Shown here: piece after piece, positions 1 to 41,741 of the stretch
Position numbering within the stretch: position 1 is the first letter of the stretch
Layout of the letters: every line of letters starts with the position of its first letter
Virus record (IMG/VR): IMGVR_UViG_3300027719_000011
Length of the DNA: 41,741 nucleotides
Reading direction: 5' to 3' (one strand)
Origin: a virus
Made by a program: the position numbers and the translations under genes
The notes under the pieces: generated by a model
Seen by the model: only the letters and a program-made list of their open reading frames with translations
Told to the model about the DNA's origin: nothing
Database searches by the model: none

Positions 1-127
1 CCAAATTCTAATTTGATTTTGGGCATCAGAACACCTCAAACATCATTTCGGTACCGGCCAGAACAATGTTGGCCAATTCTGCGCCGAGTGTGATTGACGA
101 ACTTGAGGTTTCAGTATAACCTGTGGC
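1..127. repeat. Terminal direct repeat, copy 1. It is identical to 41615..41741 and looks like a circular-closure overlap.
   Basis: Comparing the first and last lines base by base shows bases 1..127 equal to 41615..41741. The repeat lies inside coding sequence, at the junction of ORF 26..514 and ORF 40249..41640. Confidence 0.95.
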
Positions 128-11343: not shown

Positions 11344-13137
11344 TCAATAGCCTGCCAGATCGTCGCTGGGTTGGTACCGATTCTGTTGCTGAAAGTCCTG
11401 CACACTGCGGGGACTACGATACTCCGCCGGTAGCTGTATCAGCCTGCGGACATCCTCGATCAAGTGATCGTCAGCGTCTTTCGGCTTGTTCAACTCGCCT
11501 TTATCCTTTGCGCCACCCGCTTTCCAGTCCTTCCACACGTACCGCCCGAGTTCCCATATCAGTCTGGTGCAATGGGGGTCGATAAACAGGCTGGGGACAC
11601 CGTTGCGGGACTTGAAAGCATCCTGCATAAGCTGGATGCCACTGGAAAGATCCTTGGAGCCAAAGTCGAGAGAGATGCCGTGATCGGCCAGCTTCTCTTC
11701 AATGACTTCAAACGTCGATTTGCCCCGGTTGGTATCGCCTTGGCTGGACGGGTCGATGATGGCCTGCTCAATCGGGTGGATGGTCTTGTGAAAATCAATC
11801 ACCCAATCCGCAACCTGCTCAGGACTGCCATGCCTGAAGATTTCGTGGCAGACGAACTGGTTGCCTCTTCGGTCTACCCACATGAAAGTGAGGGCTTGCT
11901 CGGTGCGCGGATGGGTGTCGATGGCCGCGTAGACCGTGCTGTCTCTGGGGGGTTCCTGGCAAGGCACTACATGGATAGCGGGTTTGAAGTCTTTGAATAC
12001 CAGACCCTGGAGATGTAGAAACTTACCCTGCATACGTGTCTCGCGCTCATCGGGGGTCAGTGCCGACTCAAAGCTGTCGATGTCTGCCGACTTGAGATGT
12101 GGGTTTTCTCTGCTGGCAGCAGTGATTGTCCAGATGGTCGGGTCGGCCTTGTTCACAATCTCGTCTGCAATCCACGGCTCTTTCAGCGGGGTCATTGAGA
12201 AAATGGAGATACCCGAATGATCGACCAGACCGCGCAGGTTGGCAACATAGACTGGCCGGGGCGGCGGCTCATCATACAGAGTCACATAGCCGTCCCAACC
12301 TTCCATCATGGCGGGATCCTGCTGGTACGTCAGAAAGTCGATGACCGAACCGTTCTGGAAGATCCAATGCGCCTCGATGCCAAAAGAGTTCTTCTTCTTG
12401 GCCGCGACCCACTCAGGTGCCACATACTGACGGAACTTCGGCAACTGCACCTGTTCCAGTGCAGTCATGTCCTCTGCAAGAACGCGAATCTTAATCGGAG
12501 GATTCCAGCGGAGTTTACCTGGGTCTGGCGGCGCGGCGCACAACTGCGTGAAGGTCTTTAGTTCCTTCTGGTTCTGGAACGTGCGGGCAAGGAGAACTTG
12601 CTGCTGTTTGGGCTTTTTGGGATCACCAACTGCCAGAGGTCGCCAGCCCATCAAGAACTGCTTACACTCGGCGGCGTGGTTGATGCGCCCGTGGAGTGCT
12701 GCGGGTAGTAAGGCTTCCTCGATCTGCTTATGAACCTCTGCAGGGTAGGCAACTGTAAATGTGTTATCCGAATGCATCTGCAAACTGGTTGGTTGAGGCA
12801 GCTGGACAGACGGCGGTTGAGGCACCCAGGGATACCGACCGATGGCCAGAGAGATAGCGGCTGCAACAGCTGCAGTCGTCTTGCCATACCGGTTGCCTGC
12901 AAGAAGGACAAACGCCTTGAGCGATGGATCCTGTAAGGCATCGAAGAATAACTGCTGCTTGGTGTGCGGCACGAACCTCTCAAGCTGGTGGGCATTGTGG
13001 TACCGGTTCGCCTGCTCAAGAAGTTCAAGCTTCTTCGCCTTGGCCTCGGTCAGGAGCGCCTGGATCATCTCAGGAGTCTGCGCCGGTTGGCCGCCCTGGC
13101 TGGGGACAACGTCCTTCCTTGGCTGCTTAGTTGCCAT
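11344..13137 (-). CDS. Terminase large subunit
   Basis: It has a Walker A motif (LAGNRYGKTT), a Walker B-like motif (VTLYDEPPP) and nuclease-domain acidic motifs (AIDTHP, IIDPSSQGD, DADDHLIED). It sits upstream of the portal gene. Confidence 0.9.
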   Translation of the reverse strand: MATKQPRKDVVPSQGGQPAQTPEMIQALLTEAKAKKLELLEQANRYHNAHQLERFVPHTKQQLFFDALQDPSLKAFVLLAGNRYGKTTAAVAAAISLAIGRYPWVPQPPSVQLPQPTSLQMHSDNTFTVAYPAEVHKQIEEALLPAALHGRINHAAECKQFLMGWRPLAVGDPKKPKQQQVLLARTFQNQKELKTFTQLCAAPPDPGKLRWNPPIKIRVLAEDMTALEQVQLPKFRQYVAPEWVAAKKKNSFGIEAHWIFQNGSVIDFLTYQQDPAMMEGWDGYVTLYDEPPPRPVYVANLRGLVDHSGISIFSMTPLKEPWIADEIVNKADPTIWTITAASRENPHLKSADIDSFESALTPDERETRMQGKFLHLQGLVFKDFKPAIHVVPCQEPPRDSTVYAAIDTHPRTEQALTFMWVDRRGNQFVCHEIFRHGSPEQVADWVIDFHKTIHPIEQAIIDPSSQGDTNRGKSTFEVIEEKLADHGISLDFGSKDLSSGIQLMQDAFKSRNGVPSLFIDPHCTRLIWELGRYVWKDWKAGGAKDKGELNKPKDADDHLIEDVRRLIQLPAEYRSPRSVQDFQQQNRYQPSDDLAGY

Positions 13138-13462
13138 AGTTGATTAGTGCCTGCAGTTCGTCAGACACCCCGGCGCAGGATTCAACAGCTGTGAATTGCT
13201 GAGTCGCTTCAGGTGTCTTGGAGGCTTCGACCCGTTCGCGGACAGTCACCAGCATACCTTCAGGGGAGTGACTGTACAACATCTCGATCTGGCTTGGTTT
13301 GAGACGGGTTTCGTGCAGGAACGCGACGAGGAGGGTCTGCTCCAGCGTTGTGGTGATGTCCTTAAACATCTTGAGGCTGGCTCGGACGACGGGATCTTCC
13401 GTGTTGGTCAGATCGCCAGTAACCTTCTGCTTCCAGGCTTTAAAAATGCGGGCTTCTTTCAT
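13127..13462 (-). CDS. Putative terminase small subunit, called by position
   Basis: This 111-aa ORF is the first gene after the late promoter and overlaps the terminase large subunit start by 11 nt. An AAGGAG RBS precedes it. I see no diagnostic motif. Confidence 0.35.
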   Translation of the reverse strand: MKEARIFKAWKQKVTGDLTNTEDPVVRASLKMFKDITTTLEQTLLVAFLHETRLKPSQIEMLYSHSPEGMLVTVRERVEASKTPEATQQFTAVESCAGVSDELQALINYGN

Positions 13463-13493
13463 ATTGGCTCCTTGTGTTTGTCATGTTAAGGTC

Positions 13494-13523
13494 ATTGTAG
13501 GTCGAACCCAGGTTACCGGTCAA
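13494..13523 (-). promoter_or_regulatory. Sigma70-like late-operon promoter
   Basis: The minus strand reads TTGACC (13518..13523), an 18-nt spacer, then TACAAT (13494..13499). This lies about 30 nt upstream of the AAGGAG RBS and ATG of ORF 13462. Confidence 0.5.
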
Positions 13524-13560
13524 GACGGTATTTTAGCTACGGGGTAGACCGGTATTTTAG
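13523..13560. repeat. Direct repeat AGAC(C)GGTATTTTAG, two copies, abutting the -35 of the late promoter
   Basis: The copies are at 13523..13536 and 13546..13560, read directly from the sequence. Confidence 0.6.
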
Positions 13561-14073
13561 TCGCGAGTCATTTAGACGCTATACGACCGCACATGTGCCC
13601 TCGACCCTACCCCTACCCCTCTCATCAACGTAATACAATGGCATACAATCGGCTGAAAAACGTAACACAAAGTAATAGGGTTTACATAATATCTATTATC
13701 AGGCCGTTTCAATCCTCGCAAATAGGCACGGTTGAGTCCTTGTTGCAAGGCACCATGAAATATTGCTGCAGGTGCTTACCAGATTCTGCGCTTTTATGCT
13801 GCAGTAGTATCATGGCGGCCAGGGTGCTTAGGAGGCTAGATGCCTTGTTCTAGTGGCTCTCGATTGCCGTTGCTCTCGGTAATCCGTTTAACCAGTGTCT
13901 TTGCGAGCTATAAAACGCGCAAAGCTACTGATATGCTATGGAGTCTATACTGGGGAAAATTTCCCTACCCTACATTATCCACCTGAGTAATAATTACCTT
14001 GTCTGCTCTCAACTATGCTATAAAGCTATTCTAGTCACAAACATTGGCAACCTGGCAGCCCGGAACAATTAGA

Positions 14074-14091
14074 TTGTGGTAAATTTACCAC
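14074..14091. promoter_or_regulatory. Perfect 18-bp palindrome TGTGGTAAATTTACCACA, a candidate protein-binding site
   Basis: It is read directly from the sequence. It lies in the ORF-free region between the early terminator and the late promoter. Confidence 0.4.
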
Positions 14092-14126
14092 ACATATAAA
14101 AATCCAGGTTGTCCAGGTAGCGCAAA

Positions 14127-14165
14127 ACAAAAGGGACAATACTAATAATGTATTGTCCCTTTTGT
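14127..14165 (-). terminator. Rho-independent terminator ending the minus-strand early operon
   Basis: A perfect 15-bp stem pairs 14127..14141 with 14151..14165 around a 9-nt loop. On the minus strand the GC core is followed by UUUUGUUUUG. Confidence 0.75.
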
Positions 14166-14187
14166 GGCCTAATTACTTTAAAACTCC

Positions 14188-14322
14188 TTAATCTTTTGCT
14201 TGCTCTAAGATCTGCTTTGCCAAGTTTGCGTACTCTTCAGCCTTAACTGTATCGCCTCTCTCAACCGCACGTTCCATACATGCAAGACAAGTGTCTAATA
14301 ACGCTGCTAGAATATTGTTCAT
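14188..14322 (-). CDS. Small hypothetical protein (44 aa, below the ORF-track cutoff)
   Basis: My hand translation is MNNILAALLDTCLACMERAVERGDTVKAEEYANLAKQILEQAKD. Its ATG lies 3 nt after the stop of ORF 14326..14625, and the terminator follows it. Confidence 0.35.
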   Translation of the reverse strand: MNNILAALLDTCLACMERAVERGDTVKAEEYANLAKQILEQAKD

Positions 14323-14325
14323 AGT

Positions 14326-14625
14326 TTATTTGCCTTTCCATGGTAGCTTTGTGCTATCTATAAATTCGCCTTTTAACTTGCAAGTTTTTACTATGCCTTT
14401 AAGCGTAGGCATGGCGGCATTAACGCAATCAATACAGCCTATGCTGTTCGGCAGAATGCCTTTTTCCATTTGGAACCAACCTATTCTGCTTTGATCAAGA
14501 AACGCATGGCAATATCTGCATTGTATGTATTGTTGCGCGATGAATTGCGCTGATATCATTTTATCTGCTATACCCGGCTCCAATTTGTTCAACAAAACTT
14601 TTCCGACAATTGTTTCTGTTTTCAT
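14326..14625 (-). CDS. Hypothetical Cys-rich protein, possible Zn-binding
   Basis: It is 99 aa with CRYCH ... CIDC. It lies in the AT-rich island. Confidence 0.45.
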   Translation of the reverse strand: MKTETIVGKVLLNKLEPGIADKMISAQFIAQQYIQCRYCHAFLDQSRIGWFQMEKGILPNSIGCIDCVNAAMPTLKGIVKTCKLKGEFIDSTKLPWKGK

Positions 14626-14640
14626 TTTTAAAACTCCTCT

Positions 14641-15249
14641 TCAATGTTTCCGGAATAGGATTGTAGGGTATCGATTGTTACTACTGCAGATACTGCAGAT
14701 TTTGCAATCCCCGGGGCAAACAATAGCATTCTGTAATATCTTTGGTTCTTCGTGCTTGCCAATTACTTTACTTGCCCTTACAAAAGTCTTACTGACTTTG
14801 ATTGCCTGCTTGCAGCTTGTTTCGTCGAGCGAAAAAATCAGCCTGACATTATCAAGACTTTGCAGGCCTGAAAAATTAAACTGGTAAGAACGGGTATAAG
14901 CATAGAAGATAATCCCGGGAAATGTTTCTGCAATCGCTTGCCAGTCATTTATATATTTTTGGCTGTAAAAGTCCCCGCTCTCATGAATTCTGACTTTGTT
15001 GATTTTGCCCTTGCTCACTAGCAAAGCTATTTCATTAACCATTTGGGGAACAAAGTTTTTGTTTTTGCTATCTTTCAAGCTTTCTTGCCTATGGTTCAAT
15101 ACTCCTCTATAAATTCTCTCTGCTTTTCTCGCATAGCAATAAGCTTTGCATGCGCTTGTTGCGCCCGGGCATGTTTCAATAGCCGGTAGATTGAATATGC
15201 CTGTAGTTTTTGGGAGTTTTCTATTCCCTAATGTTAAAAGATTTTTCAT
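14641..15249 (-). CDS. GP88-family-like Cys-cluster protein, function unknown
   Basis: The N-terminus (LGNRKLPKTTGIFNLPAIETCPGATSACKAYCYARKA), IHESGDFYSQKYINDW, FYAYTRS and a C-terminal CPGDCKICSIC fit the pattern I remember for Pfam GP88 phage proteins. Confidence 0.55.
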   Translation of the reverse strand: MKNLLTLGNRKLPKTTGIFNLPAIETCPGATSACKAYCYARKAERIYRGVLNHRQESLKDSKNKNFVPQMVNEIALLVSKGKINKVRIHESGDFYSQKYINDWQAIAETFPGIIFYAYTRSYQFNFSGLQSLDNVRLIFSLDETSCKQAIKVSKTFVRASKVIGKHEEPKILQNAIVCPGDCKICSICSSNNRYPTILFRKH

Positions 15250-15255
15250 AATGTT

Positions 15256-15555
15256 TTACCTTCTTCCCCAAAAGGGATTGTTCAAGTCTTCGTTCACACC
15301 ATAGAACGTGTAGCTGTCATAGTTTCTAATCCGCGACCGTTTATTACCGCAAAATTCTTGATATTCAATCGTCTTACCTGCTGTTATCATCGCGGATTGA
15401 AACAAAGATAAATCACAATCTTCCTCAAGAAAAGCAAAGTTACCATGCCTATACGAAAACGAGCTAATTTTGTCTGCAATGCCAAGCTTTACAAGCAATT
15501 TAATAGATACTTTTCCCCATGCATGCCCCGGATCGGCATATACTTGAATTTTCAT
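15256..15555 (-). CDS. Hypothetical conserved phage/plasmid-type small protein
   Basis: It is 99 aa and contains ADPGHAWGKVSIKLL...SYRHGNFAFLEEDCD. I recall this pattern from mobile-element proteins but cannot name the family. Confidence 0.45.
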   Translation of the reverse strand: MKIQVYADPGHAWGKVSIKLLVKLGIADKISSFSYRHGNFAFLEEDCDLSLFQSAMITAGKTIEYQEFCGNKRSRIRNYDSYTFYGVNEDLNNPFWGRR

Positions 15556-15679
15556 TTTTGATACTCCTTCAATAATTTGTAAATCGCTGCCAGTTCTTTA
15601 ATGTTTCTTTGTATCGGATTATGATACTGCAGGCCATGTAAACGTAAATTACGCCAGACTCTTTTGAATTCTATTCTGT

Positions 15680-16168
15680 TCATAACAGACCATTTTCCCG
15701 GAATGAGAAGTACCCTACTTCTCCCCCAGCAATGATTACGTGGTCTATAAAACGGATATCCATGATATCCGCTGCGCGTGCTATGGCCTTAGTGATTACA
15801 ATATCAGCGTTGGACGGGCGTAGTTGTCCAGCTGGGTGGTTATGAACTACAAGCACGCCCGTTGCGTAGCCTAATAACGCTTTGCGGATTATATTCTTTG
15901 GATAAACTGCAGTTTGGTCTTCTATGCCCTCACTTAGTATCTCTTCTTGCATAATCCTATTCTCATTGTTCAAATAAAATACTCTCAGTTGTTCCGTTGG
16001 TAATAGCATCATGTTAAGTCTGAGGTAATCAATAAAAGCACTTGCTGTCTGTATGGACGGTTTCAAGTGCTGCAAGCGTGCTACGTCCTGAGCACCCTTT
16101 AATATCTCGGCTTTGCTTGCCTGTCTATACTCCCCTGCGTTTTCCCTTACAAATAGTTGATGTTTCAT
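15680..16168 (-). CDS. radC: RadC-like JAB/MPN metalloprotease-domain protein
   Basis: The JAMM motif is intact (HNHPAGQLRPSNAD, i.e. HxH-x7-S-xx-D). The upstream region is RadC-like (EDQTAVYPKNIIRKALL). An AAGGAG RBS precedes it. Confidence 0.85.
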   Translation of the reverse strand: MKHQLFVRENAGEYRQASKAEILKGAQDVARLQHLKPSIQTASAFIDYLRLNMMLLPTEQLRVFYLNNENRIMQEEILSEGIEDQTAVYPKNIIRKALLGYATGVLVVHNHPAGQLRPSNADIVITKAIARAADIMDIRFIDHVIIAGGEVGYFSFRENGLL

Positions 16169-16172
16169 AGTT

Positions 16173-16304
16173 TTAACTCCTTACTACTTTAAGACTAGAC
16201 GTTTCAATGCCTAATGATGCAAGCCTGCAGATATACGAGCAGCCAGCCTGTAGACTATCAACTACCGCGAAAACCTCATTCTTTTTGCTTACTACTTTAT
16301 ACAT
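16173..16304 (-). CDS. Possible 43-aa leader ORF upstream of the RadC-like gene
   Basis: My hand translation is MYKVVSKKNEVFAVVDSLQAGCSYICRLASLGIETSSLKVVRS. An AGGAG sits 9 nt upstream of its ATG. Its last codons contain the RBS of the RadC-like gene. Confidence 0.3.
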   Translation of the reverse strand: MYKVVSKKNEVFAVVDSLQAGCSYICRLASLGIETSSLKVVRS

Positions 16305-16351
16305 GTTATTTTCTCCTGCGTTTTTGTTTTTGTTTTTGTTCTTATGTATTC

Positions 16352-16380
16352 AATATACTTATAAACGCTTACAATGTCAA
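16352..16380 (-). promoter_or_regulatory. Sigma70-like promoter for the AT-rich RadC island
   Basis: The minus strand reads TTGACA (16375..16380), a 17-nt spacer, then TATATT (16352..16357). The -35 is embedded in CGCTTGACATTGTAAGCG (16366..16383). Confidence 0.55.
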
Positions 16381-16575
16381 GCGATTTGGTTTTTTATTTT
16401 ACCAGATAATCTACACCGATCGGCCAAGTAACTTTTATCATTTCGTTGCTTTGGTAATATAGTCGCAGCGCAGCTTTGCCGATAAATTACCCTACCAGGC
16501 CTATGCACATCAGACTGGCCTGGAACGCGCACGCGCATGTGAGATCGCGTACCTCAAGAATAAGGGATTATAAGT

Positions 16576-16656
16576 ATCCACCAGTGCACAGATAGAAAAA
16601 TGCACCAGTGCCTGGATAGAAAAATCCACCAGTGTCTCTTTGGAAAAACTGGTGGA
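16576..16656. repeat. Three head-to-tail 24-bp iterons plus one inverted core
   Basis: The units are 16577..16600 (tccaccagtgcacagatagaaaaa), 16601..16624 (tgcaccagtgcctggatagaaaaa) and 16625..16648 (tccaccagtgtctctttggaaaaa). They are followed by ctggtgga (16649..16656), the reverse complement of the core. Confidence 0.85.
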
Positions 16657-16681
16657 TCTTCTTGGCCTGAAGCGGGTTGGG

Positions 16682-16894
16682 CTATTTTGGTAGCAAGCCT
16701 CCCTGTGACCAAACATGATCTAGGTAATACTCCACAGCGGCTTGAGCCAGTTCTGACGGAGACACATTTTCTACAATGGCGGCGAGGCGTAAGTCCTTCA
16801 TGGTGCCTATCCCCAACTGAACTACAGCCTCTTCCGGGGTTAATTTTCTGCCTATCTCGGCCTTCAAGAGCTTGTTTCTGTGGGTGTCTCTCAT
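16682..16894 (-). CDS. Ribbon-helix-helix (CopG/Arc-like) DNA-binding protein, paralogue 2
   Basis: It is 70 aa. LRLAAIVENVSPSELAQAAVEYYL parallels the upstream paralogue. Its start overlaps the stop of that gene. Confidence 0.6.
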   Translation of the reverse strand: MRDTHRNKLLKAEIGRKLTPEEAVVQLGIGTMKDLRLAAIVENVSPSELAQAAVEYYLDHVWSQGGLLPK

Positions 16895-17097
16895 TTGCTA
16901 CCCCCCAGAGATGTTACCAGCGCATCGCGCACCCACTCCGACACACTGACGTTCTCGCAGATTGCAGCCATATGCACTGCATCAAGCAGCTTCTTGCTCA
17001 CCGAGACCGCCAGGGTCTTGTTCAACACCAAGTCGGGGGCAACCTTCCTCTTCGTCACACGAAACATTTCTTCCATCGTTGATCTCCTTTTTGTCAA
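16891..17097 (-). CDS. Ribbon-helix-helix (CopG/Arc-like) DNA-binding protein, paralogue 1
   Basis: It is 68 aa. LAVSVSKKLLDAVHMAAICENVSVSEWVRDALVTSL fits the RHH beta-strand plus two-helix pattern. An AAGGAG RBS precedes it. Confidence 0.6.
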   Translation of the reverse strand: MTKRRSTMEEMFRVTKRKVAPDLVLNKTLAVSVSKKLLDAVHMAAICENVSVSEWVRDALVTSLGGSK

Positions 17098-17107
17098 ATC
17101 TGACTAT

Positions 17108-17136
17108 AAGATACACTATAAAAACGTATCTTGCAA
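17108..17136 (-). promoter_or_regulatory. Candidate promoter with an overlapping inverted repeat, upstream of the RHH pair
   Basis: The minus strand reads TTGCAA (17131..17136), a 17-nt spacer, then TATCTT (17108..17113). The inverted repeat AAGATAC (17109..17115) / GTATCTT (17126..17132) spans it. Confidence 0.4.
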
Positions 17137-17352
17137 TCGATTATTTGTCATTTGCACGTTTTTACACTTTGACATTCAGCGCGACACAAATGGGAGCTAT
17201 CAAGACTGGGGTCGTTTTGCCCTGCACCGCTCTGCTCCCCGCGCCCGCCCCCAAAAGTCTCCCAACACGTGGATTCCTTTGACGACTTTTGGGGCCTACC
17301 CTGGCCCGGCCCGTTGTCCTTTCTGCTGGCCGATTCTGGAGACGGGTGGGCC

Positions 17353-17650
17353 GGGCCGACCCCCTGTAATTTCTATATATCTAAAAGAAGAATAAATAAT
17401 ATCTTTCTTTTAATAGGTCTAGGATTATTTGGTCGGCCCGGTCGGCCCGGCATGTTGTACTTGCGTTGAACACAGGGGAGAGCGGCGGGCCGAGGCGAGG
17501 GAGAGGTCAGTCCGGTCGGCCCACGGCAATACCTCTTTCTCCCTATATAAGTTAAAAGGGTCAGCCCGGTCGGCCCATACCTCCCAAAGTCGCGACCAGT
17601 CGAAAAAGAAACCGGGCCAACCTCAACTAAGGGGTCGGCCCGGTCGGCCC
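17353..17650. repeat. Origin-like array of GC-rich 18-bp iteron doublets around AT-rich segments
   Basis: Doublets of GGTC(G/A)G(C/T)CC + GGTCGGCCC occur at 17431..17448, 17505..17522, 17559..17576 and 17633..17650. An inverted single copy GGGCCGACC is at 17353..17361. The AT-rich core is 17366..17430. AT-rich 15-16-mers ctatatatctaaaag (17373..17387) and ctatataagttaaaag (17543..17558) also repeat. Confidence 0.8.
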
Positions 17651-17667
17651 AGCAAGAGCCGGTAGGG

Positions 17668-19167
17668 TCAGTCAGACCATCTGATCCCGGAGTAAACACG
17701 TATCTTCTCGCCGCCTTCACGAATCCGGCAGGCGTTGATCTTGAACAGGCGAACCATGTAGGAGGCGAGCTTGCTGTCAAACCCTTGTGACGGAACCAGG
17801 TCTGCTGGAATCTTGGCGACGAGATCCTCACGTTTGAGGTCGCCTTCGCCTCGTTCCAGATGTTCACGAAGCCACGCCTCTAATGGGTCAGCCTGGTTCA
17901 CAGCGATCTGCTTTTCAGCTTCCCATTGTGCAGGCACCAGGAACTCGCCACGGTCTCTCATCCTGATAAGACCCTCAAGCAGCCAGTTCACTACCCCTTC
18001 ACGGCGTTCAGGCACCGACCAATACTCAACAGTCATAACCTCGGTGTTCCAATGCCCCGCCACGCGATTTGCGAACCGAAAAGGATACATTCTATCAACC
18101 ATTGCCCCCGAAGCGTCAGCAGCGTCCTGCAATTCATTGCACGTACTGATTAACTTGGCGGTCGCCGGTGCCCGATATGGGTCACGAAACTTCTGCTCAA
18201 GTCGCAAGTTGCCAGAGGTGTAGCTTTTCAAAAATCCAGGCCACCCACGAACCACCGGAGAGTCGTCGCTGATGTTGGCAAACTTGTTGAGCAACCCTGC
18301 TGCCGACCACTTCGACTTAACCAGCTCGGCTTCCTGGATGAACGAAACTCCAGTGGCACCAGCGACTGAACAACCGATTGCTGTAGCGAGTGTGGTCTTT
18401 GCAGATCCTGGCGGCCCCCACAAAATGATCTGGCCGCGCAAGACCGAGTGAGGTTGCAGCAGTGTAGACATGACTTCCTGGAAGTGGCGGCGAATCTCAG
18501 CATCTGGCAGTGCCCGAGCGATCATGGCTTCAAACTCTGGGCAACGTGATGGCTCACCATCAATCGACAGCCAGGGCATCGAGATGCGTGGCCCGTAAAT
18601 GACTCGACCTGCAAATGGTTGCAGCACATCGGTCTGTATATCGTAGATGCCATCGGTCAGCATCACCTCCGTCTTGCTCAGGTGAAATGGTAGCCACACC
18701 AGCTTGTTATCCTGAGTGACACGCTCATAATATAAGGTGGATCGGGTGCAAGTGGACACCTCAGGAATCTTGATCTCGTCCTGCACAACTGTGAGGAAAT
18801 CTCGACGGGCATTGCCCCCGATGAAAGCGTGTGCGCGGCGTGTCAGCTCATCGGTCACGACTTCCCAGCCGCCAGCAGTCTCGGACATGAACTGGCCACC
18901 CTGCCATGCCAGGTTGCTACCATAACCGGCAATAAACCTGCGGGCTTTCATGTGCATGGTCAGTTTGTCGGGCGCCCCTTCTGCCCTGGGCAGCTTACTC
19001 CGCTTGGGTACCACCACTTCGCCATGTTCGGTGTCGATAGCTACACGGCCATCGGGCAGCTCAGTTCGGGCGACGTTGTGCGATTCAGTAACTTTGGCAG
19101 CTTTCTTCTTTTTTTCCACGAAGGGCTTGATTTCTCCAGTCACTTCGTCTACAATAACAGTCATCAT
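17668..19167 (-). CDS. SF3 replicative helicase (D5 / P4-alpha C-terminal-like)
   Basis: It has a P-loop (ILWGPPGSAKTTLA), a Walker B-like motif (FANISDDSP), and LRLEQKFRDPYRAPATAKLISTCNEL, which is typical of the phage/plasmid primase P4-family C-terminal domain. Confidence 0.75.
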   Translation of the reverse strand: MMTVIVDEVTGEIKPFVEKKKKAAKVTESHNVARTELPDGRVAIDTEHGEVVVPKRSKLPRAEGAPDKLTMHMKARRFIAGYGSNLAWQGGQFMSETAGGWEVVTDELTRRAHAFIGGNARRDFLTVVQDEIKIPEVSTCTRSTLYYERVTQDNKLVWLPFHLSKTEVMLTDGIYDIQTDVLQPFAGRVIYGPRISMPWLSIDGEPSRCPEFEAMIARALPDAEIRRHFQEVMSTLLQPHSVLRGQIILWGPPGSAKTTLATAIGCSVAGATGVSFIQEAELVKSKWSAAGLLNKFANISDDSPVVRGWPGFLKSYTSGNLRLEQKFRDPYRAPATAKLISTCNELQDAADASGAMVDRMYPFRFANRVAGHWNTEVMTVEYWSVPERREGVVNWLLEGLIRMRDRGEFLVPAQWEAEKQIAVNQADPLEAWLREHLERGEGDLKREDLVAKIPADLVPSQGFDSKLASYMVRLFKINACRIREGGEKIRVYSGIRWSD

Positions 19168-19200
19168 GTTGATTTAGGCTCCTCATTGTGTTAGGATTGC

Positions 19201-19218
19201 CCCCCGAATTGTCGGGGG
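19201..19218 (+). other. Short GC hairpin with a plus-strand T-tract inside a minus-strand operon
   Basis: CCCCCGA (19201..19207) pairs with TCGGGGG (19212..19218) around a 4-nt loop. On the plus strand it is followed by cttttctatttt. Confidence 0.35.
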
Positions 19219-19228
19219 CTTTTCTATT

Positions 19229-19333
19229 TTACGCCGGTACCGATTTGGAATCAAGAGGCTTCTTGTTGCCGAACACCCACTCCCTGAGCCGCTCCAGCTC
19301 TCGCAGCTCCCATTCTGAATAATTGCCACTCAT
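19229..19333 (-). CDS. Possible 34-aa ORF
   Basis: My hand translation is MSGNYSEWELRELERLREWVFGNKKPLDSKSVPA. A GGGGGA Shine-Dalgarno lies about 8 nt upstream of the ATG. Confidence 0.3.
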   Translation of the reverse strand: MSGNYSEWELRELERLREWVFGNKKPLDSKSVPA

Positions 19334-19486
19334 GGCTTTAGCTTCCCCCTATAATCCAATTTAAAAGCCTGCCGAAAATGCCGTCAAGGTTCCGCTTATC
19401 AAATTCAGCGTTACATCTCCGACACCTGAACGGGCCGCTGCCCTTTACCCTCATGTAGTCGCAACCGATTAGCCAGCAGATTAGCT

Positions 19487-19831
19487 TCATTTATTAGGCT
19501 CCTGCCAAATTCTGCAACCGCGCATCCACGGTAATATCCCGTTTCGGCACCAAATATCAAACCAACTTGTCATATAGAAGTGCCATGCCATAAAAAAGCT
19601 TTGCCTCATCCCGGCGATACTCCAAACCTTTTTGCACTCCGAGCGCGGAACAACAAGCCTGACTGCTCCAACCGTAAATTTATCTTGAATATCCCATGCT
19701 CCACAATGAACGCCATTGACAATAATGTATTCTTTGCCTTTATACATAACCTTGTCGCCAAGATTTGTGTTTTTTACAGCTTTCAAGCAAAGCCAAAAGA
19801 TTCTTAATTTCCAGTATGCTTTTTTAATCAT
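19487..19831 (-). CDS. Hypothetical protein (114 aa, Trp/Cys-rich)
   Basis: The ORF is ATGA-coupled to the upstream gene and lies in an AT-rich segment. I recognise no motif. Confidence 0.45.
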   Translation of the reverse strand: MIKKAYWKLRIFWLCLKAVKNTNLGDKVMYKGKEYIIVNGVHCGAWDIQDKFTVGAVRLVVPRSECKKVWSIAGMRQSFFMAWHFYMTSWFDIWCRNGILPWMRGCRIWQEPNK

Positions 19832-20061
19832 TCTTTCGCCTCGTCCATCACAAGCTCAATATAATCCGCATTTTTCGCAATGCCAGAAACATCCGCTTTT
19901 ACGCCGCAATGGGAGCAGCAATATCTGATTGTCAGGTTATGGTGAGCGCTGACAATCTCGCAAATAGCGCCCGTTGGTATTTCTATGCCGCCCCTGTTCC
20001 TGATTGCGTCTTTAAGCCTGACTTTTTTACCGACAAGATCGGCGGCTTTGTAGTTTTTCAT
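19828..20061 (-). CDS. Hypothetical protein (about 77 aa)
   Basis: I prefer the ATG at 20059..20061 (MKNYKAAD...), which has an AGGTGA Shine-Dalgarno. The ORF track uses the GTG at 20067. Confidence 0.45.
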   Translation of the reverse strand: MKNYKAADLVGKKVRLKDAIRNRGGIEIPTGAICEIVSAHHNLTIRYCCSHCGVKADVSGIAKNADYIELVMDEAKE

Positions 20062-20063
20062 AC

Positions 20064-20171
20064 TCACTCACCTTTCGCGGCTCTGATTGCCGCCATGGCT
20101 CTGGGAAATAGGATTCTAAGCCCCGTTGTTATGGTTTCGGGGTCAGGATATTTGTTTGTATCTGTAAACAT
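20064..20171 (-). CDS. Possible 35-aa ORF
   Basis: My hand translation is MFTDTNKYPDPETITTGLRILFPRAMAAIRAAKGE. A GAGGA lies upstream, and its stop is 2 nt before the next ATG. Confidence 0.25.
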   Translation of the reverse strand: MFTDTNKYPDPETITTGLRILFPRAMAAIRAAKGE

Positions 20172-20193
20172 TTTTGTAAATTCCTCAAGCGCA

Positions 20194-20454
20194 TCAAGCA
20201 TCATCGGCGCGGCTTTTTTTAATTGGCTCCAACTCTAGCCTTCGACCAGTCAGAGCCGCTTCGCATTCTTCAAATGTTTCGCCAACAAGATCAAGAATAC
20301 GCTTAGAGTTTTGCCCGAATAAGCGCTGAAGGTGATCTTGTATTTCTGGCTCCGTAGCACTGTCAACCCAGACCGCCCCCGGCCCATTATGACCTCGGAC
20401 GCTTTTCCATGAATTATCTGTTGTGTCGAAATATATCTGTTTATTCATACTCAC
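20194..20454 (-). CDS. Hypothetical protein (86 aa)
   Basis: The ORF overlaps the upstream gene by 4 nt. I recognise no motif. Confidence 0.45.
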   Translation of the reverse strand: MSMNKQIYFDTTDNSWKSVRGHNGPGAVWVDSATEPEIQDHLQRLFGQNSKRILDLVGETFEECEAALTGRRLELEPIKKSRADDA

Positions 20455-20963
20455 CCGCCCCTTTCTGCCGCTGACAGCGCGGCTTCAAGCTTCCTAGCCT
20501 CAATGACAAGCATTTCGTAAGCATCTCCAAAACATGCTTGCATGTATTCCAGTTCTGAAATCTCAGAGGGAAGCTTTTGTTTTGCCATGAAGCCTATCTT
20601 TTTCCGCATCTGCTCGATCAATGCGCTTTTTCGCTTAATCTGCCCCATATAATCTAAGCATACGGCTTTTGATTTATCGGAAAACGCCGCATAATCAGTG
20701 TTCAACCTTTCAGCCTCCGCCCGCGCCTCTGCAAGCTCATCAGTTAGCCGCGGGTTAATTTCGCGCTCCCCGTCTAAGTCTTTGCGCAACTGCTGGTTTT
20801 CGATGTGCGCCTGGTTTGTTTTCAACAGCAATTCGTTAGCCTTTACAAGCTCGGTTTCAAGCTGGCGGGCAAAGTCTATGTTGGTCACGATCTTGGTGTC
20901 ATAATGCCTTTCGCCCAGCGCAACGAATAACGCTGCATCGGTTCTCGGTGTTTTACTTTCCAT
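20451..20963 (-). CDS. Hypothetical coiled-coil protein (170 aa)
   Basis: I reset the start to the ATG at 20961..20963 (MESKTPRTDA...), which has a GGAGGG Shine-Dalgarno and a TAATG overlap with the upstream small ORF. The ORF-track start at 21023 is a TTG codon. Confidence 0.5.
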   Translation of the reverse strand: MESKTPRTDAALFVALGERHYDTKIVTNIDFARQLETELVKANELLLKTNQAHIENQQLRKDLDGEREINPRLTDELAEARAEAERLNTDYAAFSDKSKAVCLDYMGQIKRKSALIEQMRKKIGFMAKQKLPSEISELEYMQACFGDAYEMLVIEARKLEAALSAAERGG

Positions 20964-21142
20964 TATTTTCTTTCCCTCCACTTGTCTATTGTTGGTTCGT
21001 GCTTGATCGGATTTCTTAGGCAATAATGATAAACACAGAAAATATCACGCTGAAATTCACATGTATCACAGGTTTTGAGCGCGTCTAATTCCGATTCTAG
21101 CCTCATTTTCTCTTTTTCGTAAAGCTTTTGCGTTTTACTCAT
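20963..21142 (-). CDS. Hypothetical 59-aa Cys-rich protein (below the ORF-track cutoff)
   Basis: My hand translation is MSKTQKLYEKEKMRLESELDALKTCDTCEFQRDIFCVYHYCLRNPIKHEPTIDKWRERK. An AAAGGAG lies 8 nt upstream. It is translationally coupled at both ends. Confidence 0.45.
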   Translation of the reverse strand: MSKTQKLYEKEKMRLESELDALKTCDTCEFQRDIFCVYHYCLRNPIKHEPTIDKWRERK

Positions 21143-21392
21143 CGTTCAAACTCCTTTCATATTCCATCTTTGAGGGTATCGCCCTCAGTTCATCAATCAT
21201 CTTCTGAGCCGTTTCAATCTCATGCTCCCAATACCGTATGCAATCTTCCCGGCTCTTTTCCAGAATAAAGCGGTGCTCAAACTCCCACTTCATTTTTCTG
21301 AAGACCGGGAAGTATCCATAGAGCGGCGGCACCTTGCAAAACTCACATACGCAACCACCTACGCAGTTGCTTTGGGTGTGGGGGCACTTCAT
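21135..21392 (-). CDS. Hypothetical Cys-rich protein (85 aa)
   Basis: The N-terminus is CPHTQSNCVGGCVCEFC. I cannot assign a family. Confidence 0.45.
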   Translation of the reverse strand: MKCPHTQSNCVGGCVCEFCKVPPLYGYFPVFRKMKWEFEHRFILEKSREDCIRYWEHEIETAQKMIDELRAIPSKMEYERSLNDE

Positions 21393-21395
21393 AGC

Positions 21396-21782
21396 TTATT
21401 TGCTCACCTGTCTTCCTCGCCAGATAACGCGTCCCACCCAACGAATAAACAAGACCCCCGCGACAAGCAGCGTTGGTGGCAATGTGCAATATGCGTCAAA
21501 GTTGATTACTGTGGGCTGCGCTGCTGCTGCTGACCGGCCTTTTGAAACAGTTGTTATATAGTTGCCCGCCACACGAACGCCACTAACTCTCGGGCTAATC
21601 TCAATTATAGGGCCAGTGTGCCCTTCGGGCACTTCAATGACGCAGTCCTGAACCACATAAAAACCTCCATCTCGGATTGGTTCTACCAAGTCTAACTCCT
21701 TAATGTCAGACATTTGCTGCTGAAGCGAGTTCAGTTCTGCTTCACTAACTCGTAGTCCAAGCGTATTTGATGAGTTATTCAT
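21396..21782 (-). CDS. Hypothetical protein with a C-terminal TM (128 aa)
   Basis: I reset the start to the ATG at 21780..21782, which forms an ATGA overlap with the prim-pol stop. The C-terminal hydrophobic segment is LPPTLLVAGVLFIRWVG. Confidence 0.45.
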   Translation of the reverse strand: MNNSSNTLGLRVSEAELNSLQQQMSDIKELDLVEPIRDGGFYVVQDCVIEVPEGHTGPIIEISPRVSGVRVAGNYITTVSKGRSAAAAQPTVINFDAYCTLPPTLLVAGVLFIRWVGRVIWRGRQVSK

Positions 21783-22678
21783 ATCTCGGCCTCTAACCAA
21801 CTGTAGTCCTGGTCGCGCCAGATCGCATGTCCATCGGCATACGACCAGAGTTGAATCCAACCTTCACCCGCATCGATGTAGCCATTAATCTCACCATTGC
21901 CAGAGCAGCGGGACTTCGTGCGAACAGTCTGCCCCTCTGCACGTAGCCGTTCGACAATCGCTCCCACGTAGACTGGCCCCGGTGTCTTAACACCCAACCG
22001 CTTTAACCACTCAGCTACAAATTCACCGAGTTCCAAGGATTCTACTTCAGGTGTCAGCACAGGTAGGTGCAGTGTAGACGAGGCAGTAATCAAATGGCTT
22101 ACCATCTCTTCAGACAGAAACGATGTTGACTTGTAAACCCACCGGTTAGCACCGCCATAGACCCAGAACATGCGCGAGTCGTTTTTGCAGACATGCACTC
22201 CTGCATCAACCAGACGTTCAATCCACGGGCGGCTGATCATCTGTGTGATGCGAGAGATATGACCCCGCTGCGGATTAGCAGGCATCGAGATCGGTGTGGC
22301 CAGTCGCAGGAACACATGCAGTCCTCTGCCACCGCATGATGTGCGGATCGACCCATCGGGGCCGATAACCTGGGCAACTACTTCGACCAGACTCTGGAAT
22401 GACAGGTGCGGATTGTCGTCGCCGTCGATGTCGATGCCCGCCCAGAAGATCGAGCAAGGTTGATCGGCCATTGCACCCCGAGGATCTGGGTATGCTTTGT
22501 TGGTGCAACCGTAGAACTTGATCTTCAAAGCTGGAGGCATTCCGGTACCAGTTTTTGCGGCCTTACCCGGCCACCAGGCCAATGCTTTCTTGGTCGCCCC
22601 AGCCACACCGATTTGAGGTATCAACCCGGCGGGCAGCTGTTCAAACAGGAACTTCACTACTCCTTCAAAACTATCCAT
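21779..22678 (-). CDS. Archaeo-eukaryotic-type primase-polymerase (prim-pol)
   Basis: The AEP motifs are FWAGIDIDGDDNPH (DxD) and SCGGRGLHVFLRL (GxGxH). Confidence 0.7.
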   Translation of the reverse strand: MDSFEGVVKFLFEQLPAGLIPQIGVAGATKKALAWWPGKAAKTGTGMPPALKIKFYGCTNKAYPDPRGAMADQPCSIFWAGIDIDGDDNPHLSFQSLVEVVAQVIGPDGSIRTSCGGRGLHVFLRLATPISMPANPQRGHISRITQMISRPWIERLVDAGVHVCKNDSRMFWVYGGANRWVYKSTSFLSEEMVSHLITASSTLHLPVLTPEVESLELGEFVAEWLKRLGVKTPGPVYVGAIVERLRAEGQTVRTKSRCSGNGEINGYIDAGEGWIQLWSYADGHAIWRDQDYSWLEAEI

Positions 22679-22954: not shown

Positions 22955-22983
22955 TTGACATATAAGCGAACATCGATTATGAT
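22955..22983 (+). promoter_or_regulatory. Rightward early promoter
   Basis: It reads TTGACA (22955..22960), a 17-nt spacer, then TATGAT (22978..22983). The -35 is embedded in the 7-bp-arm inverted repeat TTCGCTT-gacatat-AAGCGAA (22950..22970). Confidence 0.7.
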
Positions 22984-23338: not shown

Positions 23339-23347
23339 TGCTATAAT
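23339..23347 (+). promoter_or_regulatory. Extended -10 promoter element TGCTATAAT
   Basis: It is read directly from the sequence and lies 20 nt upstream of the ATG at 23367. I see no good -35. Confidence 0.35.
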
Positions 23348-23366
23348 GCACAGAAGGACAATCAAC

Positions 23367-24182
23367 ATGAACCCGATGGATGCAATCAATAATATTATCG
23401 GCAACGCTACCACCAACCCGACTGCCCCCGCAGCCTCTATTCGCTGGCTTGTGTGTGACAAGTGTAAAGACATTGTAGAGCACGACATGTCTCGCCTCCC
23501 CCCCGCCACATGCACTGCTTGCGAAGAAACCACATCTTTCAAGGTGATGCCGTCTCTGGAAGCTGCCCGCCGATTGGCCGAAGCTGCCCCAGTCGCTCCA
23601 GTCGCTCCAGTCGCTCCAGTCGCTGAACCGGCCAAACGCCAGCGCAAAACTGCCCCAGCACCTGTAGTCGTTGCACCCCCAGTGGTCGAAGCAACTACCG
23701 CAACTGCCACCGAAGCTACCGAACCCGAAGTGCTGTTGAATGAGCAGGGACAGGTAGACTTTAAGGCTATGCGTGAAGCAGCAACAAATCATTTGATCCA
23801 AAAGTTCCACCTTAACGAAGTGGACATCAAGGAAGTCGGCCAGGGCACAATCTTTTCACTGGGCTTCACCCGATGGGTCATCAATGAGAATGGCAATCGG
23901 GCACCGAGCTACAACTTCATGGAGCTGACAGACACCCCGGCATCTTTCAAGGAAGAACTCAATGCCGCCCGCAGTGAAGAAGGTATGATCACTGTCGATG
24001 TTGCCAAGATCGTTGGCCTCAATGCCGAAGGGGCCGCCACATGCTACAATGGTGAACTGATCGCCAGCTTGAAGAATCAGACCGGCCCCGTCCGTGCAGG
24101 ACTCGGCAGCCGCATTCGACTCGGTGCCAAGCTCTCTAAGTCTGGGCGCATCGTGTGGTTTGCGTTGGGTGTAGCGAAGTGA
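23367..24182 (+). CDS. Zn-ribbon protein with a (PVA)n linker and an unknown C-terminal domain
   Basis: I prefer the start at 23367 (MNPMDAINN), which has an AAGGA RBS. It has CDKC...CTAC cysteine pairs and an APVAPVAPVAPVA linker. Confidence 0.5.
   Translation: MNPMDAINNIIGNATTNPTAPAASIRWLVCDKCKDIVEHDMSRLPPATCTACEETTSFKVMPSLEAARRLAEAAPVAPVAPVAPVAEPAKRQRKTAPAPVVVAPPVVEATTATATEATEPEVLLNEQGQVDFKAMREAATNHLIQKFHLNEVDIKEVGQGTIFSLGFTRWVINENGNRAPSYNFMELTDTPASFKEELNAARSEEGMITVDVAKIVGLNAEGAATCYNGELIASLKNQTGPVRAGLGSRIRLGAKLSKSGRIVWFALGVAK
23586..23624. repeat. 9-bp tandem repeat gctccagtc, about 4.3 copies, in frame
   Basis: It is read directly from the sequence. The first unit is gccccagtc. It encodes (PVA)n. 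Confidence 0.9.
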
Positions 24183-25065
24183 GGGCAAAACTAGAATCCT
24201 GGCAGCTACAGCAACGGCAGGCGCAACCTCTTGAAATCAAAGAGCAACTGACGGCCAACCGTATCAAAGCCTACTATGAGCGGCTTGACGGCGAAGTCTA
24301 CATCAGCTTTAGTGGGGCAAGGATTCTACGGTTTTGTTACACCAAGTTCGCAGGATGTATCCGCATGTGCCAGCGGTGTTTGTAGACACAGGTCTGGAAT
24401 ACCCTGAGATCCGAGAGTTCGTAAGAACAATTGATAACGTAATTTGGCTGAAGCCGAAGATACCTTTCCCCCGAGTCATCGAAGAACACGGCTACCCGGT
24501 GATAAGCAAAGAAGTGTCCCAGAAGATAAAAGAAATCCAGACAACCAAAAGCGAGATATTGAGAAATATTCGGTTGAATGGGGACTTAAAAGGTAATGGG
24601 AAAATTTCTGAAAAATGGAAGTTCCTGGTCGATGCGCCTTTTAAAATTTCTGATCGCTGTTGCCACATTATGAAGAAAGCTCCGGTGAAACAATATGAAA
24701 AGGAGACGGGTAAGGGGGCTATAGTCGGAACTATGGCAGCGGACTCAAATCTTAGAAGACAATCTTATTTACAATACGGGTGTAACTCCTTCGGAGATAG
24801 ACCTATGTCCACTCCTATGGCTATCTGGCTTGAGGAGGACATCTGGGCCTACATCAAGAAGTACAATCTTCCTTACTCTAAGATTTACGATATGGGTTAC
24901 ACTCGAACAGGCTGCATGTTCTGTATGTTTGGGGTTCATTTGGAGCCTGACAGCCGATTTGAACGCATGAAGATCACGCATCCTCAGATTTATAATTACT
25001 GTATGGACAAATTGGGATTGCGTGAAGTACTTCGCTACTGTGGCTTTGAACCCCCGAAAGAGTAA
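24179..25065 (+). pseudogene. PAPS-reductase-family (PP-loop ATPase) gene interrupted by a 1-nt frame change at the G4 run 24314..24317
   Basis: Frame A ends ...DGEVYISFSG and then goes out of frame. Frame B continues KDSTVLLHQVRRMYPHVPAVFVDTGLEYPEIREFV. Joined, they restore the canonical SFSGGKDSTV and DTG..YPE motifs. The C-terminus has TRTGCMFCMFG. Confidence 0.75.
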
Positions 25066-27842: not shown

Positions 27843-28463
27843 ATGAGCAGTGTAGAAGATCGTCAGAAATATCACACAGAGTATAGGCGCAAGAATCGGG
27901 AGAGTCTGAGAGCAAAAAATAGGCTCATAAGAATAAAGAAAAAAGAAGCAGGATTTTGCCAAACTTGCGGTTGGGGGGTTCCAGTAGTCCCGGGCAAAAC
28001 TATGTGCGAGAAGCACTTAGAAGCTCGGAAAAGTCGCCGAGGGAAGAAGACCAAAACTTGGCAAAAAAATGGTATGTGTGCCCATTGTGGCCAGTTTCCA
28101 GCAGTAGAAGGTAAAAGATCCTGCGAACGTTGTTTGATATACGGGAGCCGAGGAGTAAGGGAACGAGGAGCGGCAGGTAAGCGCAAAATCGTGGCATATC
28201 TCGGAGGCAAGTGCCAGAGATGTGGGCTTGTTACGGATTGTATGCCCGTATACGAAATCCACCATCTAAGCAAAAAGAATAAAGACTTCAATATGAAAAC
28301 TATCCAAAGCTGGTCTTGGGAGACGATTTTAACCGAACTGAACAAAGGGGTTCAGCTTCTATGTGCGAACTGTCATAGGATTATCCAGCATAACCACGAA
28401 GAAAATTGGGCCAACAAGACTTTGCCGATAGGGCCAAGATCAAAAGATAGGGAGAACAAATGA
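27843..28463 (+). CDS. HNH endonuclease with N-terminal Cys-rich repeats
   Basis: The HNH core is GGKCQRCG...YEIHHL...LLCANCHR. The N-terminus has repeated CxxC pairs (CQTCG, CEKH, CAHCG, CERC). It has an AAGGAG RBS and an ATGA overlap with the polymerase gene. Confidence 0.85.
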   Translation: MSSVEDRQKYHTEYRRKNRESLRAKNRLIRIKKKEAGFCQTCGWGVPVVPGKTMCEKHLEARKSRRGKKTKTWQKNGMCAHCGQFPAVEGKRSCERCLIYGSRGVRERGAAGKRKIVAYLGGKCQRCGLVTDCMPVYEIHHLSKKNKDFNMKTIQSWSWETILTELNKGVQLLCANCHRIIQHNHEENWANKTLPIGPRSKDRENK

Positions 28464-41640: not shown

Positions 41641-41741
41641 CAGAACACCTCAAACATCATTTCGGTACCGGCCAGAACAATGTTGGCCAATTCTGCGCCG
41701 AGTGTGATTGACGAACTTGAGGTTTCAGTATAACCTGTGGC
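41615..41741. repeat. Terminal direct repeat, copy 2 (identical to 1..127)
   Basis: Direct comparison shows identity. Bases 41640..41741 duplicate the 3' end of ORF 26..514. Confidence 0.95.

Follow-up and report, generated by a model that had tools for sequence, protein, structure and literature searches.

Does the repeat-filled region that directly follows an SF3 helicase gene in this phage genome serve as a replication origin, and if so, of which type? An origin had originally been predicted here from direct and inverted repeats flanking an AT-rich stretch. We followed up this prediction in the window, i.e. the whole analysed DNA stretch of 41,741 nucleotides (IMG/VR record IMGVR_UViG_3300027719_000011), using repeat statistics, folding of RNA and single-stranded DNA, comparison with related contigs, and structural models of the replication proteins.

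Genome and related contigs

The first and last 127 nt of the window (1..127 and 41615..41741) are identical, so the assembly is circular and represents a complete genome of 41,614 bp. It encodes an SU10-type portal, a large terminase, a family-A DNA polymerase (28460..30592), an SNF2-like helicase, a PD-(D/E)XK nuclease, and a PAPS-reductase-like protein. The host is bacterial, judged by strong sigma-70-type promoters in the genome, such as TTGACA-17-TATGAT (11/12) at 22955..22983 (+) in a divergent intergenic region. Searches of the window for tRNA, tmRNA, and Rfam families at gathering thresholds gave no match.

About 40 helicase homologues were found in a protein database, and their contigs (designated by L numbers) were compared with the window. 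Statements on the conserved layout cover relatives of the nearer clades with enough downstream sequence, with helicase identities of 33-83%. An exact look-up of the window helicase sequence returned no record, GenBank phages gave no match at the DNA level, and no relatives emerged when IMG/VR was scanned with a single peptide sequence. GTDB genomes contained none either, hence no prophage or host clue was obtained from them.

All relatives possess the helicase and, beside it, a primase-polymerase (prim-pol) gene. In the window, this AEP-type gene (21779..22678, minus strand; 299 aa) has the invariant motifs DIDGDD and GGRGLHVFF. The best PDB fold match of its AlphaFold2 model (pLDDT 86) was the AEP domain of cyanophage S-2L PrimPol (6ZP9, E 6.8e-4), followed by LigD polymerase domains. 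With these motifs and this fold match, the label "prim-pol" given to the gene in the original prediction is reasonable. Between prim-pol and helicase, an N6/N4 DNA methyltransferase is encoded in L119 (8998..9945) and L121 (8973..9947), a position occupied by unrelated small ORFs in the window.

The small ORFs flanking the array region (13127..17097 and 19183..21860), including an RHH-like one at 16891..17097, had no homologues in the relatives. Within this part of the genome, a block at 14001..16000 has a GC content of 39.5% compared to 51% overall. Its genes, coding for a RadC-like JAB protein (15680..16168) and a GP88-family protein (14641..15249), have no counterpart in the relatives, and the block therefore resembles accessory DNA that was acquired. 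At its edge, a perfect 16-nt inverted repeat (ACAAAAGGGACAATAC / GTATTGTCCCTTTTGT; 7-nt loop; 14127..14165) may be a bidirectional terminator.

Further observations concern genes on the other side of the replication genes. The gene of the PAPS-reductase-domain protein (24334..25065, plus strand; E 3.5e-19), which may be a DNA-modification enzyme, has a homologue downstream of the helicase in L140, L135, and L161. The ORF 23346..24182, with a product whose C-terminal half is kept in all relatives, contains a 9-nt tandem repeat (CCAGTCGCT, four copies, 23589..23624).

Repeats downstream of the helicase gene

The 9-mer GGTCRGYCC is present in nine exact copies in the 41,741-base window, all inside 17353..17650, compared to a chance expectation of about 1.3; this count did not occur in any of 100 dinucleotide-preserving shuffles. 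Eight copies form the helicase-proximal set of four direct 18-bp doublets (17431..17650, plus strand), starting at 17431, 17505, 17559, and 17633 with spacings of 74, 54, and 74 bp, exactly as originally described. Read in the orientation of the helicase, the doublet unit is GGRCYGACC. The helicase-distal set (17292..17361, minus strand) has the opposite orientation and consists of the exact copy at 17353..17361, already described as an inverted single copy, a degenerate partner at 17344..17352, which matches the iteron at 5/9 positions, and an 8/9 copy 60 nt further out at 17292..17300. The latter belongs to the degenerate inverted copies that had been overlooked; the others are located at 17614..17622 (8/9) and 17486..17494 (7/9), each 10 nt ahead of a doublet. 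Altogether, 17292..17650 comprises nine exact and three to four degenerate iterons with a 9-bp unit, paired as doublets. The far-side set of this genome is weak, with one exact and two to three degenerate copies compared to eight near-side copies.

The gap between the end of the array and the helicase stop codon (17668..17670) is only 17-18 nt, in agreement with the position initially reported. No further iteron cluster was found elsewhere in the genome, where copies with one mismatch occur at chance level, and a search for other iteron or AT-rich arrays outside the region was also negative.

Two further observations on the repeats were set aside. The doublet spacings of 74/54/74 bp could be read as helical phasing of about 7/5/7 turns, but the spacing is not kept in the relative L175 (72/68/70), and this idea was dropped. 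Searching IMG/VR with the 18-mer GGTCGGCCCGGTCGGCCC yielded 118 loci, which were rejected as irrelevant to the array; these are collagen-like Gly-Arg-Pro coding repeats, as their spacings are multiples of 9 and the contigs have 60-75% GC.

AT-rich core and coding status

Between the two iteron sets lies an AT-rich core (17366..17430), which is presumed to be the DNA-unwinding element and to which no strand is assigned. The very AT-rich 65-bp stretch originally pointed out proved to have a GC content of 18.5%, the lowest of any 65-nt window genome-wide, and it also holds the lowest-GC 50-nt window; its flanks have 63-72% GC. The core is bordered by the doublet D1 with two iteron copies on one side and by the exact inverted copy, its 5/9 partner, and the 8/9 copy on the other. 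It contains an internal 13-nt inverted repeat (17382..17394 / 17400..17412). Furthermore, the inverted iteron and D1 can form an 11-bp stem around a 69-nt AT loop (z -3.8 when folded as single-stranded DNA), and this loop is enclosed by a 19-nt inverted repeat with 84% complementarity.

The array region overlaps with program-made ORFs that are 66, 78, and 164 aa long. In the alignment with the closest relative L175, however, the region has indels of 1, 9, 5, 6, and 2 nt. Since these break the reading frames, the region is non-coding, which bears out the earlier statement that it contains no credible ORF.

Two related AT-rich 15-16-mers had also been noted. Both exist, with 79% identity over 14 nt, but the TATATA of the second one (17543) is missing from L175, and this element is probably incidental. 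Reading TATATAAG as an archaeal or eukaryote-like TATA box was rejected because sigma-70 promoters are clear in the relatives and in the window, and because the second TATA element is not kept in L175. No DnaA-box-like sequence was found within 7 kb of the array.

Terminator built from iterons

The doublet closest to the helicase gene, D4 (17633..17650), is at the same time part of an intrinsic terminator of this gene (17601..17650, minus strand). Its 13-bp stem is formed by the arms 17633..17645 and 17610..17622 with a 10-nt loop, and is followed by a T-run (17602..17609); TCTTTTTC follows the hairpin. The predicted RNA fold has -42.6 kcal/mol (z -2.65). In an alignment of eight relatives, the consensus stem has 11 pairs, four of which show compensatory changes, with the T-tract always next to it; between the window and L175, one stem pair is changed from G:C to C:G. 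Because of this covarying hairpin with its T-tract and the G:C/C:G swap, the iterons of the terminator pair have a structural role. Consequently, not every iteron copy needs to be a protein-binding site, as some clearly act as terminator.

Conserved layout with lineage-specific motifs

The order of elements after the helicase stop codon is kept in L175, L119, L121, L129, L176, L177, L126, L169, L141, and L150. It starts with an iteron doublet and an inverted copy forming the terminator hairpin, followed by a T-run. Then, two to four more direct doublets, a 40-75-nt AT-rich core with purine runs, and two to five copies in opposite orientation follow. The array directly follows the stop codon in the first eight of these ten contigs, i.e. 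up to L169 in the order given, and an AT-rich core with purine runs between opposed iteron sets is seen, for example, in L119, L121, L129, L126, L175, L177, L169, L141, and L150. A distance of about 1 kb separates the array from the helicase gene in L140, L143, L145, and L151; in L140, the helicase is directly followed by a PAPS-reductase-like gene, ahead of the array. The arrays are 300-450 bp long and comprise 10-16 sites.

The repeated motif itself changes between lineages. It is GGGCCGACC in the window and L175, GTCCCAACC in L119, L121, and L129, GTCCCGACC in L176, TGCCAKACC in L177, TGCCYRACC in L126, AAGACAACC in L169, AAACCAAC in L141, TGTGCCAAAG in L150, and GGTTCCAAAG in L143 and L145. 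Elsewhere in its locus, each lineage's motif is practically missing. L175 keeps the doublets of the window in position and sequence, while the indels fall into the spacers. The original reading as an origin thereby gains support, as the same layout recurs beside the helicase gene in more than ten relatives, with each lineage having its own iteron.

Several other repeats were observed in the relatives. L136, L137, and L138 carry a 24-nt tandem repeat (unit approximately GTGAGCCTCGACTGTTGATGAGCC) about 800-1230 nt past the helicase stop, with about 6 to 17 copies although their helicases are 99% identical, and it may be coding on the other strand. It was considered as an array of divergent iterons, but was rejected as a single variable-number repeat unrelated to an origin. 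Simple-sequence repeats downstream of the origin are (CCGA)28 in L119 (12069..12181) and (CCAAA)n at the end of L122, and the 3' end of L121 has arrays of the heptamers GCTGGAT/GCTGAAG. The contigs L121 and L122 end within their repeat arrays, and L119 ends just beyond a poly-A/poly-T run.

The DNA adjoining the origin region also contains a second conserved motif, CACTGGWR. It was found in L119, L129, L176, L177, L126, and L169 in one to three copies (two to three in 5/6 loci), always in helicase orientation and at most 600 nt past the helicase stop in origin-proximal non-coding DNA, whatever the iteron type. The related sequence CACTGGTG occurs in the window three times at an exact spacing of 24 nt (16579..16634, minus strand), just upstream of TTATAAT in a gene-poor stretch (about 16305..16681). 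Candidate functions include a transcription activator site or a priming signal. In the same part of the window, a near-consensus sigma-70 promoter (TTGACA-17-TATATT, 16352..16380, minus strand) precedes a small ORF starting at 16304; because of this promoter, the program-made ORFs 16377..16538 and 16510..16716 may not be genes.

The helicase and its C-terminal domain

The gene next to the array (17668..19167, minus strand) codes for an SF3 helicase-initiator of the P4/D5 type. The protein matches Pfam DUF5906 (E 9.7e-11) and C-terminal parts of the PHROG family "DNA primase", has Walker motifs, and belongs to PHROG families annotated as P4-type primases. A PDB sequence-profile search gave Walker-A matches only, and therefore a fold search was used. 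The top PDB fold matches of its AlphaFold2 model (pLDDT 86) were chains of SaPI5 Pri-Rep (7OLA/7OM0; E 1.9e-15; 380-430 aligned columns), followed by other primase-helicases of the D5/NrS-1/ASFV type. In sequence, the helicase shares only about 14-15% identity with SaPI Rep. This fold match also backs the origin reading, as the documented origin of SaPI has the layout found here.

A winged-helix domain is predicted at the C-terminus (approximately residues 406-499). In the model, the order of helices and strands in residues 413-497 is H-H-E-H-H-E-E, which is compatible with a winged helix. Whether this domain changes together with the iteron was analyzed by pairwise comparison. In the helicase core, the proteins of the window, L119, and L121 differ from each other to the same extent (71-73% identity). 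The C-terminal domains of L119 and L121, which have a common iteron, share 67% identity, whereas that of the window shares 49-50% with either of them; the window and L175, which also have a common iteron, share 78% there. An exception are L177 and L119, whose C-terminal domains are 62% identical despite different iterons. The C-terminal domain diverges with the iteron type, with imperfect tracking, and these values lend modest, indirect support to recognition of the iterons by the helicase.

Promoters, GC skew, and alternative explanations

Besides an origin, four other explanations of the array were considered; they are described in descending order of their probability. The first is an operator or regulatory array, at which a phage transcription factor such as the product of the RHH-like ORF 16891..17097 regulates either read-through out of the helicase operon or the promoter in front of the following gene block. 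The array does lie between two co-directional gene blocks, the 16891..17097 product has a weak HicB/RHH-like match (E 0.027), and binding could modulate termination because one iteron pair is the terminator. A candidate promoter/operator of the next block is present at 17108..17164 (minus strand), i.e. outside the array. Its tentative promoter TTGCAA-17-TATCTT (17108..17136) was read from the sequence and is below the promoter-scan threshold, but it aligns positionally with clear TTGACT-17-TATATT promoters in L119 and L121. It is overlapped by a palindrome of its own, TAAAAACGT (17119..17127) / ACGTTTTTA (17156..17164), separate from the iterons. In the relatives, too, clear sigma-70 promoters of the next block are found outside the arrays, and the arrays do not overlap with recognisable promoters. 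Moreover, the RHH-like ORF and the other small flanking ORFs are absent in relatives which keep the array, the arrays with their 300-450 bp and 10-16 sites speak against an operator, and neither the central AT-rich core nor the opposed repeat orientation is explained. An operator function is therefore very unlikely.

The second alternative takes the array as an auxiliary cis-element for copy number or timing, comparable to "handcuffing" iterons or to crr of phage P4, with initiation elsewhere, e.g. in the divergent promoter region at about 22.9 kb. P4 uses two separated cis elements and needs crr as second site several kb from ori. The original prediction had named a GC-skew minimum elsewhere as an argument against an origin at the array. 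When calculated at single-base resolution for the circularised genome, the cumulative skew is lowest at 23,726 and highest at 13,567 and does not inflect at 17.4 kb; formally, the minimum is thus elsewhere, close to the AT-rich divergent region (22,916; 20% GC). However, the minimum coincides with a switch of gene direction and the extremes with module boundaries, which makes the skew uninformative either way. The region at the skew minimum has no repeats, and the divergent region lacks iterons or any other repeat array and has only the strong promoter. The array, in contrast, includes an AT-rich core, and no stretch of the genome is lower in GC. We therefore give very little weight to initiation at the divergent region.

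According to the third alternative, the array is a terminator whose stem was copied by slippage or recombination, with the copies now decayed and lying beside an AT-rich spacer, the repeats themselves being functionless. The first iteron pair is indeed a genuine terminator-like hairpin with covariation, and the region is prone to slippage, as exemplified by the (CCGA)28 of L119. Decayed copies are nevertheless highly improbable, because order, orientation switch, and doublets are kept down to about 35% helicase identity, the motif is replaced in concert at all copies, and indels between the window and L175 hit the spacers and spare the doublets. Finally, an array serving for centromere-like partition or for packaging (pac/cos), with a ParB/ParR-like protein or the small terminase as its binder, is the least probable of the four: such sites can be short-repeat arrays and the terminase gene (11344..13137) is on the same strand 4 kb off, but ParA, ParB, ParM, and integrase genes were not detected in the genome, about 4 kb of non-conserved genes separate array and terminase, the relatives' array stays with the helicase and not with the terminase, and their contigs end at simple repeats about 3.5 kb away and not at the array.

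Proposed origin function

Taking all results together, it is quite probable that the region 17290..17667 is the replication origin of this phage and belongs to the self-loading SF3 helicase type (SaPI/P4 type). What was observed here is the architecture and its statistical non-randomness, the conservation of the layout with iterons specific to each lineage, the lack of coding sequence, and the kinship of the helicase fold to SaPI Rep. The location of the array about 1 kb from the helicase gene in some relatives, the weak far-side set, the imperfect tracking of the iteron type by the C-terminal domain, the terminator role of some copies, and the skew minimum elsewhere were counted against this reading.

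For the mode of action, we infer iteron binding by the C-terminal domain, melting, and firing of the origin as successive steps. The helicase (17668..19167, minus strand) would recognise the 9-bp iterons, most likely through its C-terminal winged-helix domain, and would assemble on the two opposed iteron sets, with eight copies on the near side and one exact plus two to three degenerate copies on the far side. It would then melt the 65-bp AT-rich core and load itself as replicative helicase, after which the AEP prim-pol (21779..22678) and the family-A DNA polymerase (28460..30592) would prime and extend. The doublet nearest to the gene, together with an inverted copy, doubles as intrinsic terminator of the helicase transcript. 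Other conserved proteins that may bind the iterons instead are a 278-aa protein, a 249-aa protein, and the SNF2-like protein.

A more far-reaching proposal is a coupled device. With two iterons forming the terminator stem, a helicase bound to its own origin would at the same time govern termination and read-through into the hypervariable gene block downstream. The fast, concerted exchange of 9-mer and winged helix between otherwise similar phages would reflect selection for replication "incompatibility groups". We consider this a long shot. If true, the coupling would tie origin firing to a transcriptional switch, and incompatibility groups could aid the escape from co-infecting relatives or from satellites hijacking the initiator.

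With the origin reading, an origin and its initiator are assigned to a clade of uncultivated phages of about 40 kb with an SU10-like portal and a family-A polymerase, for which no close cultured relative is available and whose source metagenomes include activated sludge. Among the relatives, at least eight cognate iteron/winged-helix pairs form a natural series, which could reveal how SF3 initiators read DNA or serve for the construction of orthogonal replicons.

Comparison with known origins

The closest counterpart is the origin of the staphylococcal pathogenicity islands (SaPIs/PICIs). According to PMC9371898, which describes the SaPI5 Pri-Rep structures, it has 6-12 iterons located directly behind the rep ORF and an AT-rich region near the centre, flanked on either side by two or more iterons of opposite direction; Rep recognises the iterons by a winged-helix domain (WHD) in its C-terminal domain (CTD), and the helicase loads itself without an accessory loader. 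As in SaPI, the region described here lies immediately 3' of the SF3 helicase ORF (17-18 nt past the stop), has multiple short iterons in a number within this range (nine exact copies) and a central AT-rich region, and is accompanied by an SF3 helicase with a C-terminal winged-helix domain, here predicted, and a separate or fused primase gene upstream. On the far side of the core, the opposed iterons of the window are one exact copy, its 5/9 partner, and the 8/9 copy, whereas relatives have 4-5 good inverted copies at this position. Unlike in SaPI, the iterons are 9-mers in 18-bp doublets instead of 5-6-mers, the sides are asymmetric in the window genome (eight copies vs one exact and a few degenerate ones), and the first doublet behind the helicase gene is also the stem of the helicase terminator. 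Furthermore, the primase has the AEP prim-pol fold, and the genome is not that of a satellite but of a complete phage of about 41.6 kb with its own family-A polymerase.

The alpha protein of P4 is described in PMC4234260 as a multifunctional SF3 helicase-initiator that binds origin repeats via a C-terminal winged-helix domain, unwinds, and primes. Membership in the PHROG families of P4-type primases connects the helicase of the window to this protein. However, the P4 primase is of the Toprim type and fused to the helicase, whereas a separate AEP protein is present here. Also unlike the pair of ori and crr, all iteron copies of the window are located in one 360-bp cluster and not in two.

[quoted passage not shown] The terminator is followed by a stem-loop of about 100 nt, which is required for replication and varies in sequence while its structure is kept; the pRN1 paper states that this origin is without iterons. 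The terminator after the replication gene is a common feature, and the 11-bp iteron stem with the 69-nt AT loop can be set beside the pRN1 stem-loop. In contrast to pRN1, many iterons exist beyond a single inverted pair, and the host is bacterial as judged by sigma-70-type promoters.

Repeated initiator sites beside an AT-rich unwinding element are also shared with iteron plasmids (pPS10, RK2, R6K, F) and with the lambda origin. In iteron plasmids, directly repeated iterons adjoin the unwinding element on a single side and act together with DnaA boxes and a DnaB helicase loaded by the host. The array of the window does not fit such a Rep_3/RepA-type origin, as its iterons are opposed across the core, DnaA-box-like sequences are lacking within 7 kb, and the neighbouring gene codes for a helicase and not for a Rep_3 protein. 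The lambda origin is located inside the O gene, whereas the origin proposed here is outside the initiator gene. The mechanism proposed is thus already known, and the SaPI/P4-type origin would be extended from satellites to apparently autonomous phages.
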